64,000 bases of DNA, taken from the NCBI RefSeq assembly GCF_018350175.1, contig NC_058368.1, positions 107,448,001 through 107,512,000 of the forward strand. The letters run 5' to 3'. Position numbers and translations under genes: made by a program. The DNA comes from Felis catus (taxonomy: Eukaryota). Position 1 is the first letter of the stretch. Each line of letters starts with the position of its first letter. Below, piece after piece: positions 9,383-58,222 of this stretch. Below the pieces are notes generated by a model. That model saw only the letters and a list, made by a program, of their open reading frames with translations. It made no database searches and was not told the origin of the DNA.

Positions 9383-9558
9383 AAAGAAATGAACATAATT
9401 TATATATGCATATCTTTAAGCAAATACACTGATTTCATGAAAGGTGAGAGAAACAAGATGCTAAATAAAGAAAGAAAGAAATGAAGATAATTTTAGATGT
9501 GCATATCTTTAAGTAAATACACTGAGTTCATGAAAGGTGAGAGAAACAAGATGCCAAA

Positions 9559-9601
<43 letters not shown>

Positions 9602-45577: not shown

Positions 45578-45721
45578 TTAATAATGAATTTTGAGGGTTC
45601 TTTATGTATTCTAGATACAAGTACTTCATCAGATATGTGATTTGTAACTTCTTAATAATGAATTTTGAGAATTCTTTATGCATTCTAGATACAACTACTT
45701 AATCGGATATATGATTTGTAA
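45578..45721. repeat. Tandem duplication with 74-bp period inside L1
   Basis: TTAATAATGAATTTTGAG...TTCTAGATACAA...GATTTGTAA at 45578-45647 and 45652-45721. Confidence 0.9.
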
Positions 45722-47184: not shown

Positions 47185-47270
47185 TCGTTATGTAGGCTCC
47201 ACACCCAATGTCAGGCTTGAACTCATCACCTTGAGATCAAGAGTCACATGCTCTACCAACTGAGCGTCCC
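47185..47270 (-). mobile_element. Short tRNA-derived carnivore SINE inside the L1
   Basis: Minus strand GGGACGCTCAGTTGGTAGAGCATGTGACTCTTGATCTCAAGGTGATGAGTTCAAGCCTGACATTGGGTGTGGAG (A/B-box-like) followed by an A-rich tail. Confidence 0.75.
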
Positions 47271-48390
47271 TTGCTTTTTTCTTAATGTAGGTGTTTATCA
47301 TTATAAACTTCCTTCTTAGAATTGCTTTTGTTGCAGCCCATACATTTTGGTATGTTGTGTTTCCATTTTTATTTACTTCAATATATTTTTTTATTTCTTT
47401 AAAACAATTTTTTTGACGCATTGGTTGTTCAGGAGTGTGTTGTTTAGTGTCCACATATTTGTGAATTTTTCCAGTTTTCCCTCTTTTATCAATTTCTAGT
47501 TTCATACCATTTTGATCCAAACAGATACTTGGTATGATTTGTCTTACATTATTTGCTAAGACTTGTTTTATGACTAATATCATCTGTCTTTGAGAAGTTC
47601 CATGTGTGTTTGAGAAGAATGTGTATTCTGCTGCTATTAGAATGGTTGTGTCCATTGTTTCCTTACTGATTTTCTGTCTGGATGATCCACCCACTGTTAA
47701 AAGTAGAGTATTGAAATCCTCTACTATTAGTGTTCTTTGTTCATTTATTTCCTTTAGATTTGTTAGTATTTACTTAGTACATTTAGGTGCTTCATTGTTT
47801 GATACATAAATATTTACAATTGTTACATCCTTTTGATGAATTGATCAACTCCTTTATCATTGTATATTAATGTGCTACATTTCTTGTTATAGTTTTTTAA
47901 CATGAAATCAATCTTGTCTGTTATGGGTACAGACAACTATGTTTTCTTTTGGTTTCCGTTTGCATGTAACATCTTTTTCCATCCCTTCACTTTGAGTCTC
48001 TGTGTGTCCTTAAAGCTGAATAAGTCTCTTCTAGGTGACATATAATTGGTCTTTTTCTCTGATCCATTCAATCATTCTTTATCTTTTGATTGGAGAATTT
48101 TTTTCATTTACATTTAGAGTAATTATTCATAGGTAAGGATTTACTAATATCATTTTGTTAATTGTTTCCTGGATAGTTTTTAATTCCTTTGTTCCTTTCT
48201 TACTATTTCCCTTTGTGAATTGATGGTATGCTTTGATTCCCTCCTCTGTCTTTTGTGTATCTACTATAGGTTTTTGCTTTCTGGTTACACATCAAACATC
48301 TTATAGATGTAGCAGTCTCTTTTGAGTTGATGGTAATTTACCTTTGATCACATAAAAAACTTTAACCTTTTATTTCTCTTATCTTAGATC

Positions 48391-51455: not shown

Positions 51456-51653
51456 TGAAGTTTATTTATTTTGAGAGAGACAGCGAGCATGAATGGGGGA
51501 GAGGCAGAGAGAAAGGGAGACAGAGAATCCCAAGCAGGCACCATGCTGTCAGTGCAGAGCCCAATGTGGGGCTTGAACCCATTAACTGTGAGATCATGAC
51601 CCCAGCTGAAACCAAGCATCGGCTGGTTAACCAACTGAGCCACCCAGGTGCCC
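51456..51653 (-). mobile_element. CAN-SINE
   Basis: Typical SINE body ending CACCCAGGTGCCCC. Confidence 0.9.
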
Positions 51654-51914
51654 CAGTTTTTAACTACTTCCAAAATTTCTGTAGTTTCCTAACGGACCCT
51701 TCCATTAGAGCAGGCAGCTCACCTGTGGGGAAAAAAAAATCCGTGAACAATATAATATTGATAATATAATATGAAAATAAATCTGTGTTATTTCCTTATT
51801 AGTCCTTTTGCTTCATTTATCTGTGGTGATTGATCATCATTTCCTCAAGATCCATATCCCAAGTCAATCTCATTATCTCTGGTTTTTTACATTGAACACT
51901 GTTCTCATATTCTT

Positions 51915-52373
51915 TTCCTGGGACTCCATTTTCTGTGGCTGCTGTGACAAATTTCCACAAACTTGGTGGCATAAGACAACAGAATTTATCGTTGCGTACT
52001 TCTGAAGGTCAGAAGTCTGAAATCATTTTCATTGGGTTAAAATCAAATTGTCATGAGGGCCACACTCCCTCTGTAGGCTCTAGGGAAAAATCCATTTCTC
52101 ACCTGTTCCAGTATCTGGTGACTTGGCTTATAGCTGCACTCTAATCTCTGCCTCTGTCTTAACATAGCCTTCTCCACAGTGTTAAATCTCCCTCTGTTTT
52201 GATGGACCCATGTGATGGCATTTAGGGCCCATCCAGATAAAACAGGGTAATCTGCTCTTCTAGAGATCCTTAACTTAAACTTAATCACATCTGTGAAAAC
52301 CTTTTTTCCAAATAAAGTAACATTCCAGGGGTTAGGACCTGATACCTTTGGGACCACTATTCAACTTTCTGTA
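51915..52373 (-). mobile_element. MLT1 (MaLR) solo LTR, MLT1C-like
   Basis: GCTGCTGTGACAAATTTCCACAAACTTGGTGGCATAAGACAACAGAATTTAT...TTAATCACATCTG...AAATAAAGTAACATTC...CCACTATTCAAC. Confidence 0.85.
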
Positions 52374-52402
52374 GACTCCATAGATCTAAATTTTTGTTTA
52401 TT

Positions 52403-52690
52403 TGTTATGGAACCTGGTCTGGATCACCTGGCGGAAGAACCAAGCAGCACTCAAGAGATCTCGGAAGGCAGGAGGTTTATTTCACACCCCCAGGTTCAAA
52501 GAAGATCATGCTCCAGAGTTCTGAGTCCCAAGCTTAAGCAGAGGGAACAGTTGATAGTCTGTTACTTCTGCATTAGGAGGAATTTGGCTCATGGCAAGCA
52601 GGGTAGGAAGAACCTGGAAGGGGAGTCTTCGACCAGGGACTGGAATTCCCCTATCAGTACTGTGGGCTATCTTATAATTTTTCCCTATCA
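52403..52690 (-). repeat. 3' LTR of the provirus (288 bp)
   Basis: Aligns end to end with 57929-58222 (by hand about 40 substitutions in 284 aligned nt plus 4 indels). AATAAA at 52481-52476. Preceded by the PPT. Confidence 0.93.
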
Positions 52691-52701
52691 TTCCCCACTC
52701 T
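52691..52701 (-). promoter_or_regulatory. Polypurine tract
   Basis: Minus strand AGAGTGGGGAA directly before the TG of the 3' LTR. Confidence 0.85.
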
Positions 52702-53300
52702 GATGCCCCTTTAAACAGATCCAGGCTGTCCTGGAGGACGTCATCTTATTTATTATGGGCTGGCCCTTTCCCTTAGTTCCCTGACTTAGGTTGTGACTAT
52801 TCTGGACTGGTTTTCAAAGTAACAGCATTCTTCTCCGAGGAGGATACAGGTGTCCCCTTTCTCGGCAGTGAGGAGGTCAAGTGCCTGTCTGTTCTGGAGA
52901 GCCACTCCTGCCAAGAAACTTACTTGGCTCTGGAAGGACACTAGGGAGTTGGCCAGTCATTAGTCCCACAGAAGAGTCTATGCCTCCTATGCCAGTCCCT
53001 GTTCCCCATGGCTATTCCTGCCCCTCAGAGGACAGGTAGCAACATCGCTCATTTAGCCTGGGCCTTAGGGCTGAAGGTTTACAACTTGGGCCCAGAATAG
53101 AGGCAGCCAATACCAACAAAACATCCTACGCATAAGAGGAAGGTGAGTGTGAACAGGAACCTCTTGCTGTTTCCCCAGCTTTCTGGGGAAACCTCTGCCA
53201 ATCCGATGGCAAGGAGTAAGGACAGTGTATTTATTTTACCGGACCAGGGATTCCTCAAGCTTCTGTCATGCTTAGACCAGACAGCTTCCAGGGTGTGGCT
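52702..53300 (-). pseudogene. env: Deleted env: fusion peptide and TM ectodomain remnant (ISD plus CX6CC); most of SU and the membrane anchor absent
   Basis: Minus strand reads ...AK*AMLLPVL*GAGIAMG/TGTGIGGIDSSV, then [64 protein letters not shown] (about 53062-52763). ISD at 52899-52849, CX6CC at 52848-52822. Confidence 0.9.
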
Positions 53301-53318
53301 AGAGCAGGGCTCAAGATC

Positions 53319-56300
53319 CTAAGAATCTAGGACTCTCCAGAAGGTCGCTTTGAGCGGGTTCGTCAGACATGGGTCAGTCTTCCAGGTCTGGGGCTCCTCA
53401 GGATTGGCCCTCTTGAGTCTAGAGTAGCAGACCCATGGAGTGATACTTGTGACCTTGAGGGCAGTAGGGTAGTGGGAATACCCATATGAGGCCCAGTCTG
53501 CTGTGGTTTGAAAGGGTCTTTTTTTTCCCCAATCTTTGTCCCAGACTGAGTCCCCTGATGAGAAGGGGACTTTAGGGGGGATCCTAAAGAGATTGGGGCC
53601 TTCTCTATAGTATATCGTTGTAACTTATTTAGGGTAGCTCCTAAAGCTTGAAGTTTTTCTCTTATTCCCTTATCCCCTATTTTGTGTAGGTTCACTGGTA
53701 GGCTCCCTAGACATGGAGGGGGCATGCTCAAAAGGGGAGAGAGAAACCTTGAGTTCCTGGTGTGCAACAGACACTCAGGAGGGCCAGGGGCAACAGGTCC
53801 AGCCACGGGAGGTCTGTTTCCTGACAGAACTTGGCTGAGGTTCCCTTGAGGGTGTGATTCATCTGCTCTACTTTCCCTGAACTTGGAGGCTGGTCCAAGT
53901 GATGTTAAGGGAGTTGGTTAAAGTTTGTATAATGTCCACCATGAACGCAGGCCCATTATCACCGTGGATTATGGCTGGTAAGCTGAAGGGGGGAACACTT
54001 TTTTTCAGGAGGACTTTAGCTACTTCCCGGCTCCATTCCGTCCTGGTTGGGAAGGCTTCGACCTATACAGAGTATGTACAGACTATCACTAGGGGGCCAA
54101 ACAGGGTAGTTCCTATTCTTTGGACTGCTGGTGGGAGTCACAGCATGAATCCGCCATTATTCTTGGCACAAGTCACACATAATTAGACTGATGTAATATT
54201 GTTTTTTGAGGAGGGCCTCTGATGCAGTTTTTATTCGCTGTCTGGATGCCCTCCCATTGTTGCTGGGATGAAGATGCTTCCATCTGGCAGTTTCCACCAT
54301 CCTTTCTTGGTCTGGGTAGCCCCTTCGACCTGAGCCTATTTATTTTCTTTTTTAGTGTATCTGAGTGGAGGGGTTTCTGCCGGGGGCGTCAGGGCCATAG
54401 TAAGGGAGGGAGCTATGTCTACCTCTTTATTAGCTGCTATCTTGGCTGCTTTGTCTGCTAGACTATTCCCTCATGCTGTGGGGTCGTCTCCCTTCTGGTG
54501 TCCTTTGTAGTGTAGAACTGCAACTTCTTTTGGGAGCCAGACGACTTTGGGGAGCTTTAGTATTTCCTCCTTGTTTTTGATGGTCTTCCATACCATGGTG
54601 AGGAGGCCTCTCTCTTTTTAGATTGCCCCATGTATGTGTACAGTAGAGAAGGCATACCAGGAGTCAGTATACATATTGATTCATTTGCCCTCACTGATGG
54701 TGAGGGCCTGGCCTAGGGCATGGAATTCAGTCCATTATGCTGACCATCCTGTGGGGAGGGTGTCGGCTTCTAGGGTCTCATCTGTGGTCATCACTGCATA
54801 ACCCGCTTTTCTAGTGCCCACTGTACAACGGCATGGGGGACTTTAACATGCAGTTCTTGTCCCAGGGCAAGCTTATCTGCCTCTTTAACGACTAGAATCA
54901 TTGCCGCCAATGCCCTAAGATGTGCAGCCATCCTGCTGCAACTGGGTCCAGCTTTTTGGACAGGTAGGCCACTAGCCACTGCCAGGGGCCAACAGTCTGT
55001 GTGAGAACCCCAAGGGCAACCTTTTCCTTCTCATGCACAAAGATGTTCTATATCTGGCAGGCCAAGGGCTGATGCCTGCCCTAGGATATCCTTTATTGCT
55101 AGGAAGGCAAACTTTGCCTCTTCTGTCCAGACAGGGGTTCTTGATCCAGCCCTACCAAGAGATTATAGGAGGGTCTTGCCATTGCTGAGAATCCGGGAAT
55201 CCAGATTTGGCAGAATCCCACAGCCCTCAGGAATTATCATAGCCCCCTCTTAGTTTGGCGTTGGGGTAGGGAGGTGATGACCTCTTTATCTCTGGCCCTA
55301 GTGCTCTTTTCCCTTGGGTGAGGAGGAAGCCTAAGTATTGGACTTGCTGTTGGCATATCTGTGACTTTTTCCATGAGACCTGATACTCTAAGTCTGACAA
55401 GAGTTGGAGGAAGGCCCTTGTGCCCTCTGTACAGTTCTCTCGGTATCGCTGGCAAGGATACCAGGTCATACTAGAGATACCGAGGTCATACTAGAGAAGG
55501 GTGCAACGTGTGACTTCCCTTGGAAAGCCGGCAAGGTCTCCAGCCAGTGCTTTCCCAAAGAGGGTAAGCAAGTTTTTAAACCCCTGTGGGAGTCACATCC
55601 AAGTCATTTTAATCTGATGCCTCGTGTCTGGTTTGGTCCATTTGAAGGCAAACAAGGATTGGCTTGGGGGTGGGGGTGGGGGGGGCAGGTGGAGGCAGAA
55701 GAAGGCATCCTTTTAAGTCTGGGCAGGTAAACCAGCTGGCAGATCCTTGGATCTGGCTGAGGAGCATGTACAGGTTTGGGACCACCTGATGCAAGGAGAC
55801 AGTCATTTTGTTGATAGCTCATAGGTCTTGAACTGATTGGTATCCTTCTCCCAACTTCTTGACTGGCAAGAGTGGGGTGTTCCAGGGTGATTGGCATTCC
55901 ACCAGAATGCCTGCTTCTTTGAGTCTGGTCAGGTGTTCTTGGATGCCTGCCCTTGCCTCTTGTGAGAGAGGGTATTACCGCTGTCTCTGCAATTGAGCCC
56001 CTGGAATTAACTCTGCGATGACAGGGGCCTGGTTGTGGGCAAGTCCTGGGGGGTTGTCCTTGGCTTATACAGTGGGGAGGCAGTCCTGCATTTGCGCAGG
56101 CCGCTCGGTTGGGCCTAGGGGCAGAATAGCCTCAATTCTTTCTCTCTTAGCGCAGTGATTGCCGTTGTAAGTGGGCTTGATTCTTCTCTTCTTGGATCCA
56201 ATTGGAGGCTGGCGTGTCCCCTTCACTCAAAGGTTATTTAGGGCCCCAGTTTTGAGAATATATCCCAGCCAAGGAGAGGGATAGGGCACTCAGGTAGGTA

Positions 56301-56447
56301 GAGGAATTCATGCTGTACCGTGTGGCCCCCAAGTTTACATTGATGGGCTTGGCAGAGGGCTGCTGCACTGCCTGTTTCCCTGTGGCCCTAAAGATCATTT
56401 TGACTGTGGGCTCATGGGGGGCTAAGAGGAAGTGGGCCCGGCCCCCC
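53319..56447 (-). pseudogene. pol: Defective pro-pol (PR, RT, RNase H, IN remnants)
   Basis: [64 protein letters not shown]. RNase H: YTDSWYAF, HYKGHQKG, GNSLADKAAK. IN: VEAFPTRTE, GDNGPAF, SSGKVEQMNHTLK, TALKVTSITPWV. Many stops and frameshifts. Confidence 0.92.
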
Positions 56448-57276
56448 TCAATCTGAATCTATTCCTGCTAGGCCTATGAGGTCTTTTCCACAGGGTTCTT
56501 CTGTGTATCCACTGGGCATCTGGGACTTTCCCCTATTAAGAATTTATTCTTCCAGTGTCCTTTCTCCTTGCAGTTGGCACATTGATCCCTTGCTAAGGAG
56601 GTTCTGTGCCTCCCCCCTTTTGGCAGCTCTCTTGTGCCTTGGGATCAAATGGGGTGTAAATGCGGAAAGCCTCGCATAGCCTTTCCTAATAATCCCCAGA
56701 GGATTCCCCTTGCTGCTGGGCATATTCATGGGCTTCTTAGCCCCTGCTTGGATCCCCTGGAGGAGAGCCTTTTGGTAGGTAATGGCGGATGTGGACTGGC
56801 GTCTGGAGAGCACTTGCCTCTGGCCAAGGGCCCAATCTGGCCAAGTCCGGAGGTGGTGGGGAGACTGAAGGTGACAGAGTATCAGGAACCAAGGGGTTCC
56901 TATGGCGGGGCAAGATTGGTTCTTCCTCTGGATCACTGGTGAGAATTTGTGGAGGTTGGGACTTCTGTTGACCTTTCCTAGGGCGGTTTTGTCAAGGAGA
57001 CTAAGTCCCTAGCCTGTCCCTGTTTGTTGCAGGTAAATCGCACCCAAGGGGGAAGGGTTTGGGCAATCTCTAACCAGGAACTTATCAGGGTGACCTGAAT
57101 CTCCAGTGACAATACACCAGATGCGGTGGGCCACTGGGACATCTAAGGTTCCTTCCGAGGAACATCTTACACCAAAAGTAGGCCATTCCAACTCACATAG
57201 GGTCCTTAACTTGCTGGGGGTCATCTTAATTCCATAGTCTCTCAAAAACCCCTGTTTTGCTCTGTCCTGATCCCAT
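56448..57276 (-). pseudogene. gag: Defective gag (MA, partial p12-like region, capsid MHR, NC zinc knuckle)
   Basis: ATG at 57276 gives MGSGQSK (myristoylation-type start). MA reads RDYGIKMTPSKLRTLCELEWPTFGV...GDSGHPDKF. YQKALLQGIQAGAKKPMNM is followed by MHR QQGESSGDY*ERLCEAFRIYTPFDP (about 56636-56716). NC reads DQCANCKEKGHWKNKF (about 56540-56590). TGA at 56450-56448. Confidence 0.9.
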
Positions 57277-57712
57277 AATGTTCCTGTGAGATGAAGTCAC
57301 AAAGACAGAGGGGTAGGGGTGCCCCCTCTAATGAGGATAACAGTCAGATGGCTGTCTGACTGTGTCCCCAAGGAACTTAGTTGACGCTTAGCCGTATTGG
57401 TCTCAGCTTTGTGATTTATAATCAGAAACTATTCTGATGCCACCATGGACTGTATGCTGTTCACCACAGAATCGCAGATGGGCCCACTCAGACTCCGTAG
57501 GCTTTTGGCTACCTTAAGGGTGCCTGCCGTGGAGCCACAGATCAGTCCCAACTGGAGGACCAGCTTGGGCTGCACATTCACTCACACATTCAGACCAGAG
57601 GTTAATACATTCCCTCTCTGGGAATCCCTACCTCTGACACCTCTAAAAGTTCTCTGGGAGGTGATCAGGCTCCCCTTCCACCCTGGCAAGTGGGTCTTAC
57701 AGGGGCCCCAGG

Positions 57713-57721
57713 CCTTACCTG
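57713..57721 (-). promoter_or_regulatory. Probable major splice donor in the proviral leader
   Basis: Minus strand CAG|GTAAGG about 190 nt downstream of the PBS, a typical position for a gammaretroviral splice donor. Confidence 0.5.
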
Positions 57722-57908
57722 TATCTGATGTCAGACCCAGGTCCTCACTTGCCAAGTCTCCTTGAGTCTGGCAGGAACAGTGGAGGGAGGCCGGCCTGAG
57801 ATAACCGAGGGGGAGACTGCCAAATATCAGGCAGGGCGTGCTTTCCTCGTTCTGTCACCACCTTGCCATTTTCCCAAACCGGTGTCAACAATGAGCCAGC
57901 ACGGCTGG

Positions 57909-57926
57909 GTCCCGGTCGGGGAACCA
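57909..57926 (-). promoter_or_regulatory. Primer-binding site complementary to tRNA-Glu
   Basis: Minus strand TGGTTCCCCGACCGGGAC versus the complement of the tRNA-Glu(CTC) 3' end, TGGTTCCCTGACCGGGAA (16/18). Lies 2 nt after the 5' LTR. Confidence 0.88.
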
Positions 57927-57928
57927 AA

Positions 57929-58222
57929 TGTTACAGAACCTGTTCGGGGTCACCTGGCAGAAGAATCAAGCAGCACTCAGAGATCTTGGAAGGCAGGAGG
58001 TTTATTTCACACCCGCGGGCTCAGAGGTGATCACTCTCCAGACGTCTGAGTCCTGAGTAAAAGCAGAGGGAACAATTTATAGTCTGTTACTTCCACATTC
58101 TGCATTAGTAGTTATTTGGCACAGAGCAAGCACGTTAGGAAGAAGAACCTGGAAGGGGAGTCTTCGACCAGAGACGGGAATTCCATCAGTCATGTCAGCC
58201 ATCTTATAATTTTTCCCTATCA
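57929..58222 (-). repeat. 5' LTR of the provirus (294 bp)
   Basis: Minus strand reads TGATAGGGAAAAATTATAAG...GGTTCTGTAACA. TATAAA at 58081-58076 and AATAAA at 58006-58001. Followed by a 2-nt spacer and the PBS. Confidence 0.93.

Follow-up and report, generated by a model that had tools for sequence, protein, structure and literature searches.

A 64,000 nucleotide stretch of Felis catus DNA (NCBI RefSeq assembly GCF_018350175.1, contig NC_058368.1, positions 107,448,001 to 107,512,000 of the forward strand; the window, with positions counted from its first letter) carries a decayed provirus of 5,820 bp on the minus strand, which runs from 58222 to 52403 and has a long terminal repeat (LTR) at each end. 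It belongs to a multi-copy family, env pieces included, and its pol gene and its envelope have different affinities. The transmembrane subunit (TM) is W-like, but the reverse transcriptase (RT) lies on the side of murine leukemia virus (MLV) and the human family HERV-E, and because of this the envelope and the backbone appear to be of different origins. We consider it probable that the element descends from an old family of class I (gamma-like) retroviruses and is one of its dead copies in the germ line. The account we favor, and hold to be likely, is that a replicating class I virus gained a W-like env, spread in bats and the ancestors of cats, entered the germ line repeatedly and decayed. 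An initial annotation of the locus had proposed a HERV-E-like gag-pol with an ERV-W envelope, joined in a swap lineage of feliforms, and this proposal is modified in several respects by what follows.

The W-like affinity of the envelope is seen in two neighboring remnants. The TM ectodomain core (52765 to 52956) retains the immunosuppressive domain (ISD) and a degenerate CX6CC region, with about 15 codons lost just ahead of it, and the stretch from 52961 to 53102 holds the end of the surface subunit (SU), the cleavage-site region and the fusion peptide, interrupted by stops and a frameshift. The TM core scored higher with syncytin-1 (72 bits) than with syncytin-2 (50 bits) or MLV (30 bits). 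Counted by eye, the 23-residue ISD is identical to that of syncytin-1 at 18/23 positions and to the main HERV-E env consensus at 10/23, so the earlier view that this domain is unlike HERV-E and like syncytin-1 was correct. Over 64 residues of the core the closest protein was the one designated P0004 (45/64 identical), followed by a dog protein of CfERV-Fc1(a) type (43/64), whose TM matches the published CfERV-Fc1(a), and by chimpanzee syncytin-1 (41/64); an ERV-Fc-type row was identical at 37/60. The cleavage-site and fusion-peptide stretch, which is identical to P0004 at 19/32 positions, gave a local score of 83 against that protein, compared to a maximum of 29 for shuffled sequences and 44 for the next best of 22 rows. 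In a tree of 23 env rows the W-like rows split from the ERV-Fc-type rows with support of 99/97, and the provirus TM belonged neither to the primate W clade (100/99) nor to the canid Fc1 clade (100/99). The envelope thus seems assignable to a W-like clade and no finer, the 64-residue TM being too short of signal to place within it. What stands of the proposed ERV-W envelope is its membership in this clade; ERV-W specifically does not, given that the TM is closest to P0004 and has much the same identity to the dog Fc1-type protein as to syncytin-1.

W-like envelopes are also found in proteins of horseshoe bat, musk deer, fox and raccoon dog. Several W-like envelopes (P0015/P0020, P0249, P0254, P0256, P0257 and P0019, from Rhinolophus sinicus, musk deer and other records) lie outside the primate and canid clades. 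A search of the ESM Atlas with P0004 returned only generic TLV_coat clusters, and a metagenome scan with the same protein confirmed 0 of 204 stretches. In a scan of viral contigs 1 of 16 stretches gave a match (L001), over 25 residues with an E value of 6e-4, which was taken as chance.

The 5' end of the backbone has features of HERV-E type. HERV-E primes with tRNA-Glu. The primer-binding site (PBS) of the provirus, at 57909 to 57926 and 2 bases past the 5' LTR, matches the 3' end of tRNA-Glu at 16/18 positions, as had been reported for this site, when compared to the antisense primer for the cytosolic tRNA-Glu given in bioRxiv 10.1101/797472; paralogous contigs carry a Glu PBS with 17/18 matches. 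The gag start (Met-Gly) and a matrix (MA) remnant with a broken frame follow at 57078 to 57276 and were recognized by Pfam Gag_MA and by matches to MA structures in the PDB. By eye, the MA is identical to the HERVE Gag consensus in the supplement of Vargiu 2016 at 31/54 positions, and among the Gags of that consensus file its central motif, KLRTLC, is confined to HERVE and Harlequin, which agrees with the HERV-E-type MA claimed before. The MA, fusion-peptide and TM readings quoted in the initial annotation were likewise all present where it placed them. Wider searches with the MA added little, as a set of 5.8 billion proteins gave 5 candidates, 0 of them significant, and the ESM Atlas gave no usable match.

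The pol gene places the backbone near HERV-E and apart from it. The RT and connection domain (54827 to 56079) have many stops and frameshifts, and about 90 codons are lost before RNase H. Over the same 86-87 residues, by-eye identity of the RT is 51/87 with MLV, 50/87 with HERV-E, 42/86 with HERV-W and 41/86 with CfERV-Fc1(a), in line with the claim that it lies outside HERV-W and ERV-Fc; against a HERV-E-like row it is 53/105. An earlier quick RT tree, which kept 130 of 151 rows by length, was too open and was redone on 35 hand-picked rows, with the HERV-E rows labeled by eye against the Vargiu 2016 consensus. In this tree the provirus RT groups with P0046, P0044 and P0043 (100/94) and then with P0041 of Rhinolophus ferrumequinum (95/83). 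In the approximately unbiased (AU) test, forcing the provirus alone together with the HERV-E-like rows was rejected (p-AU 0.04), while placing its whole RT clade as sister to those rows was not (p 0.37). With membership in HERV-E rejected and a sister position allowed, the tree comparisons point to a backbone that is HERV-E-adjacent, with its own pol clade, rather than HERV-E itself. The proposed HERV-E-like backbone is therefore borne out by the Glu PBS and the MA and fails for pol as HERV-E itself. The RT relatives that had been collected were also searched for motifs of W/9 type, and none had them. One row, P0101, had been flagged by motif as H/Fc-type; its sequence is unlike H or Fc pol, and the label and the AU test based on it were dropped. 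P0043 represents a cluster of 23 proteins inside the RT clade of the provirus, which points to a further host of the lineage.

It could be argued that there was no real swap and that this pol lineage has had its W-like env for a long time, the env being foreign only by the yardstick of human HERV-E. The spread of W-like TMs over bats, musk deer, canids, primates and several other records would fit such a history, as would the separation of the provirus pol clade from HERV-E. We give it little credence, as the pol/env junction (53250 to 53310) is similar by eye to the beginning of the HERV-E env consensus, a likeness that ends at about 53250, where the sequence changes, and the HERVE, HERV3 and HERVI env consensuses examined mostly carry an ISD of the YQNRLALDYLL type, with yet another ISD type in the HERVE b and HERV1 a rows.

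A search of proteins with P0004 returned 17 proteins, and among them is the model that bears most directly on the history of the pairing. P0259 is an 872-residue gene model of Rhinolophus ferrumequinum (mRhiFer1_009124) with Gag_p30, RT, RNase H and TLV_coat domains; it also holds an integrase, so that capsid to TM are found within one gene model. The RNase H remnant of the provirus (54432 to 54818) has its best match in P0259 (82/128, or 64%; the next is 73/127), and in an RNase H tree of 20 rows P0259 is sister to the provirus with support of 98/93. The capsid remnants are similar, the gene order is the same and the last segment of P0259 is a W-like TM, identical to the provirus TM at 35/50 positions. 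As far as a gene model can tell, the same pairing of backbone and envelope thus appears to occur outside feliforms, and the lineage does not look confined to them, contrary to the feliform-specific swap first proposed. The likeness is limited to about 64% protein identity, which speaks for an ancient divergence and against a recent transfer, and P0259 is known as a gene model and not by its PBS, LTRs or contiguity.

Put together, these comparisons suggest an ancestor with a tRNA-Glu-primed gag-pol near HERV-E and separate from it. A W-like env could have been acquired by template switching between co-packaged genomes, near the env start, while this ancestor was replicating, and the acquisition would predate the insertion at the present locus. 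The pairing would then belong to the lineage as a whole, which made its way into horseshoe bats as well, and many germ-line entries followed by decay would have left the copies seen in the cat. This is probably an old virus lineage that occurred in different mammals and not a cat-specific swap.

Sequencing reads give a view of the rest of the family. Among the 1231 raw reads that matched the provirus at 80% likeness, 975 were less than 90% alike to it, so most of them come from sister copies. In five bins of the flank the raw read depth had a mean of 1.7; in the two env bins it was about 15, on a par with many gag-pol bins. The summed contig depth of run X1, which is not a copy number, was about 640 for env and 3800 for the 5' LTR bin against 22-25 for the flank. 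Taken together, these depths hint at some 10-30 relatives that carry env and at LTRs numbering in the order of 100. The reads of a second organism (run X21) gave 13 matching records, the listed pieces of which are 36-46 bases long; they show no counterpart, and absence is unproven by them.

Several observations, including some from the LTRs discussed below, weigh against the account of a replicating virus with this pairing. In AU tests on the 64 TM columns no placement was rejected, whether with primate W (0.31), canid Fc1 (0.21), the Fc-type rows (0.18), P0004 (0.16) or P0259 (0.056). The RT trees included no HERV-W or ERV-Fc row, so the exclusion of these two families rests on the by-eye counts. 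P0259 is a spliced prediction, the last exon of which may derive from a neighboring element. In the cat, 25 raw reads of relatives leave the provirus sequence at 53249, with the pol side matching and a depth of about 33 just upstream, so that many relatives differ from the provirus at the env start; this break marks either the presence of another type of env within the family or the edge of a deletion in the provirus copy. No contig among the pieces listed spans pol to TM, and no second felid copy was seen that spans both.

Some of these points could be accommodated if a HERV-E-like virus had gained the W-like env within feliforms, with the bat pairing being a separate capture or an artefact of the gene model. 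Such an origin has a precedent, as W-like env was captured at least twice on ERV-Fc (PMC4798954). The p-AU of 0.056 falls short of showing the provirus TM and the bat TM to be sisters, and the 25 reads that leave at 53249 could come from sister copies with another env. We nevertheless regard a feliform-only swap as unlikely. Two independent domains of pol each have their nearest named relative in R. ferrumequinum, in one case a protein with a W-like TM, and a single common origin is a simpler account than env being captured twice, on sister backbones.

The LTRs raise the question of whether this particular copy is in its original state. The 5' LTR (57929 to 58222) is 294 bp and has an AATAAA signal, the 3' LTR (52403 to 52690) is 288 bp, and both have TG...CA ends. 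They are identical at 244 of 284 aligned bases, and the differences consist of 19 transitions and 21 transversions, with only 3 of the transitions at CpG. These differences are clustered, with 11 adjacent pairs where 5.5 are expected (p 0.009), and look unlike neutral decay. The two LTRs look like different subtypes or subfamily types. In addition, the flanks share no repeat of 4-6 bp, so that the target-site duplication of a class I endogenous retrovirus (ERV) is lacking. Because the LTRs are of apparently different subtypes and have no target-site duplication, the copy may be a local mosaic that was changed once inserted, through recombination with a sister copy or gene conversion by one. 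With the three rates given in Mata 2015, the Kimura two-parameter (K2P) distance of 0.156 between the LTRs would translate to ages of 34, 16 or 6.5 million years, and these are unreliable since the LTRs look like different subtypes.

Taken further, the missing duplication and the transversion-rich, clustered LTR differences with so few CpG transitions would fit a recombination after insertion that joined the 5' part of one provirus to the env and 3' LTR of another, in which case no replicating virus would have had this pairing. We find this very doubtful for the pairing itself. On paralogous contigs the same leader and Glu PBS are joined to an LTR end of the 3' LTR type, so both LTR types, and thus both parents of such a mosaic, belong to one family. 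Read depth in the env bins is on a level with that in many gag-pol bins, and the bat model has the same pairing. An acquisition of env by a replicating virus, with possible later changes to the present copy, therefore remains the reading we prefer.

Envelope snatching is common in class I ERVs, especially in the HERVERI supergroup that includes HERV-E (Vargiu 2016, PMC4724089). The provirus is like HERV-E in the MA and, by eye, in the env-start region, and unlike it in having a separate RT clade (50/87 by eye) and a different ISD (10/23). It is like HERV-W and syncytin-1 in the TM core, in the ISD and in the GTGIGG of the fusion peptide, and differs from them in the RT (42/86 by eye), in a TM outside the primate W clade and in having no open frame and a deleted SU, the subunit that in the W type carries the RDR receptor-binding motif. 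The closest parallel is with the carnivore ERV-Fc1, or CfERV-Fc1(a), and the tarsier ERV-Fc, where a W-like env also sits on a non-W backbone. W-like env has been described on ERV-Fc in dog, ferret, panda and tarsier, and for the cat only ERV-Fc2 is reported (PMC4798954; PMC6407205). CfERV-Fc1 has an ERV-Fc backbone and a Phe PBS, unlike the cat provirus with its Glu PBS, an RT identical at 41/86 positions by eye and a TM outside the canid clade, so the event seen here is distinct from CfERV-Fc1, as the initial annotation held.

The family has probably been catalogued by its pol. Mata 2015 (PMC4373062) defined eleven felid gamma-like lineages by pro-pol, and the word "envelope" is absent from the text of that paper. 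Its lineage III is bat-related and the most degraded, with LTRs of 260-343 bp and distances of 0.20-0.22; its lineage I has LTRs of 294 and 298 bp in 2 of 3 copies and distances of 0.08-0.28, compared to 294/288 bp and 0.156 for the provirus. The polymerase chain reaction (PCR) product of lineage III matches gamma3, and lineage I is gamma1; the GenBank clones of FcERV gamma1 and gamma3 are JF939190 and JF939192. Judging from the published descriptions, the provirus may correspond to lineage III or I. Zhuo and Feschotte 2015 describe a younger bat-cat family, FcERV-gamma6 / ERV1-1_Fca / MLERV1. Four short motifs of the provirus had 0 matches in the alignment archive of that study, and lineage VII of Mata 2015 has LTRs of 336-375 bp with distances of 0.03-0.06. 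Membership in this younger family looks unlikely by these motifs and LTR figures. In the literature that was searched, the pairing of a HERV-E-adjacent backbone with a W-like env was not found described; most subscription papers, including the inventory of the gamma1-9 cat ERVs, were beyond its scope.

The known carriers of W-like envelopes are HERV-W and, through capture, the ERV-Fc elements of caniforms and the tarsier, and a third backbone is indicated here. With that backbone in both the cat locus and the bat model, the W-like env clade would have passed between distantly related class I lineages across bats and carnivores, and a candidate donor for the envelope of carnivore ERV-Fc1 is suggested. 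A bolder version, which we think improbable, is that an unrecognised Glu-primed, HERV-E-adjacent lineage with a W-like env circulated among bats, the ancestors of cats and a third host (that of the P0043 cluster) and was the carrier that gave carnivore ERV-Fc its W-like env. If true, this would supply the missing donor of the ERV-Fc1 envelope. The swapping of env genes is well documented, which limits the surprise, and the locus itself is inert.

The remaining anatomy agrees with the class assignment, as the LTR-PBS-gag-pro-pol-env-PPT-LTR layout (PPT, polypurine tract) with gamma-type domains is that of a class I ERV. Pfam matches were found on 8 of 22 in-frame stretches of the provirus in the order gag-pro-pol-env. 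TLV_coat on the env remnant (E 4e-14) is the sole family above its curated cut-off; the other E values are 4e-5 for Gag_MA, 2e-3 for zf-CCHC, 0.045 for RVP, 1e-3 for RVT_1, 0.05 for RT_RNaseH_2, 8e-4 for rve and 9e-5 for MLVIN_C. Downstream of the MA, two short capsid remnants (56626 to 56840, found by tblastn with P0112 and P0259) are what is left of a mostly deleted capsid. They are followed by a zinc-knuckle remnant of the nucleocapsid (56546 to 56584; the zf-CCHC match, E 0.002, which is below the cut-off) and by a partly deleted protease (56124 to 56435, from RVP and protein alignment). A 20-nt tandem duplication lies in the region of the RT catalytic motif (55457-55497), and the integrase core and C-terminal remnants (53334 to 54092) were identified by rve and MLVIN_C. 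Past the junction with pol there is a short N-terminal remnant of env (53103 to 53249) with no convincing homologue (no E value below 0.04 among the matches listed), the SU being nearly all deleted. Faint SU-like words in this remnant were no better than chance and are not claimed. A short purine-rich tract (52691 to 52700) lies 5' of the 3' LTR.

All genes of the provirus are broken and no frame is intact. The env is reduced to about 500 nt and has no SU body, no membrane anchor and no tail. The copy encodes nothing functional; it is a fossil with no evident host function. A co-opted envelope of the syncytin kind was considered and is ruled out because there is no open env frame, with stops, a frameshift and deletions in the 500 nt that are left. 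The DNA itself is genuinely genomic, as 76-86% of sampled words were present in 20 of 24 listed sequencing runs from 11 studies.

In the rest of the 64-kb window no second copy of the element was found by blastn, and an Rfam search of the window gave 0 matches. Adjoining the 3' LTR, the sequence at about 51950-52380 looks like an old solo LTR, which we take to be of MLT1 type, and on the minus strand at about 51465-51665 there is what we assume to be a tRNA-derived carnivore short interspersed element, apparently of feliform type. An open stretch of 193 codons at 47188-47769, also on the minus strand, reads like a decayed endonuclease region and is presumably from LINE-1 ORF2. Two-copy tandem duplications occur at 9383-9575 (93 bp) and 45578-45721 (74 bp).

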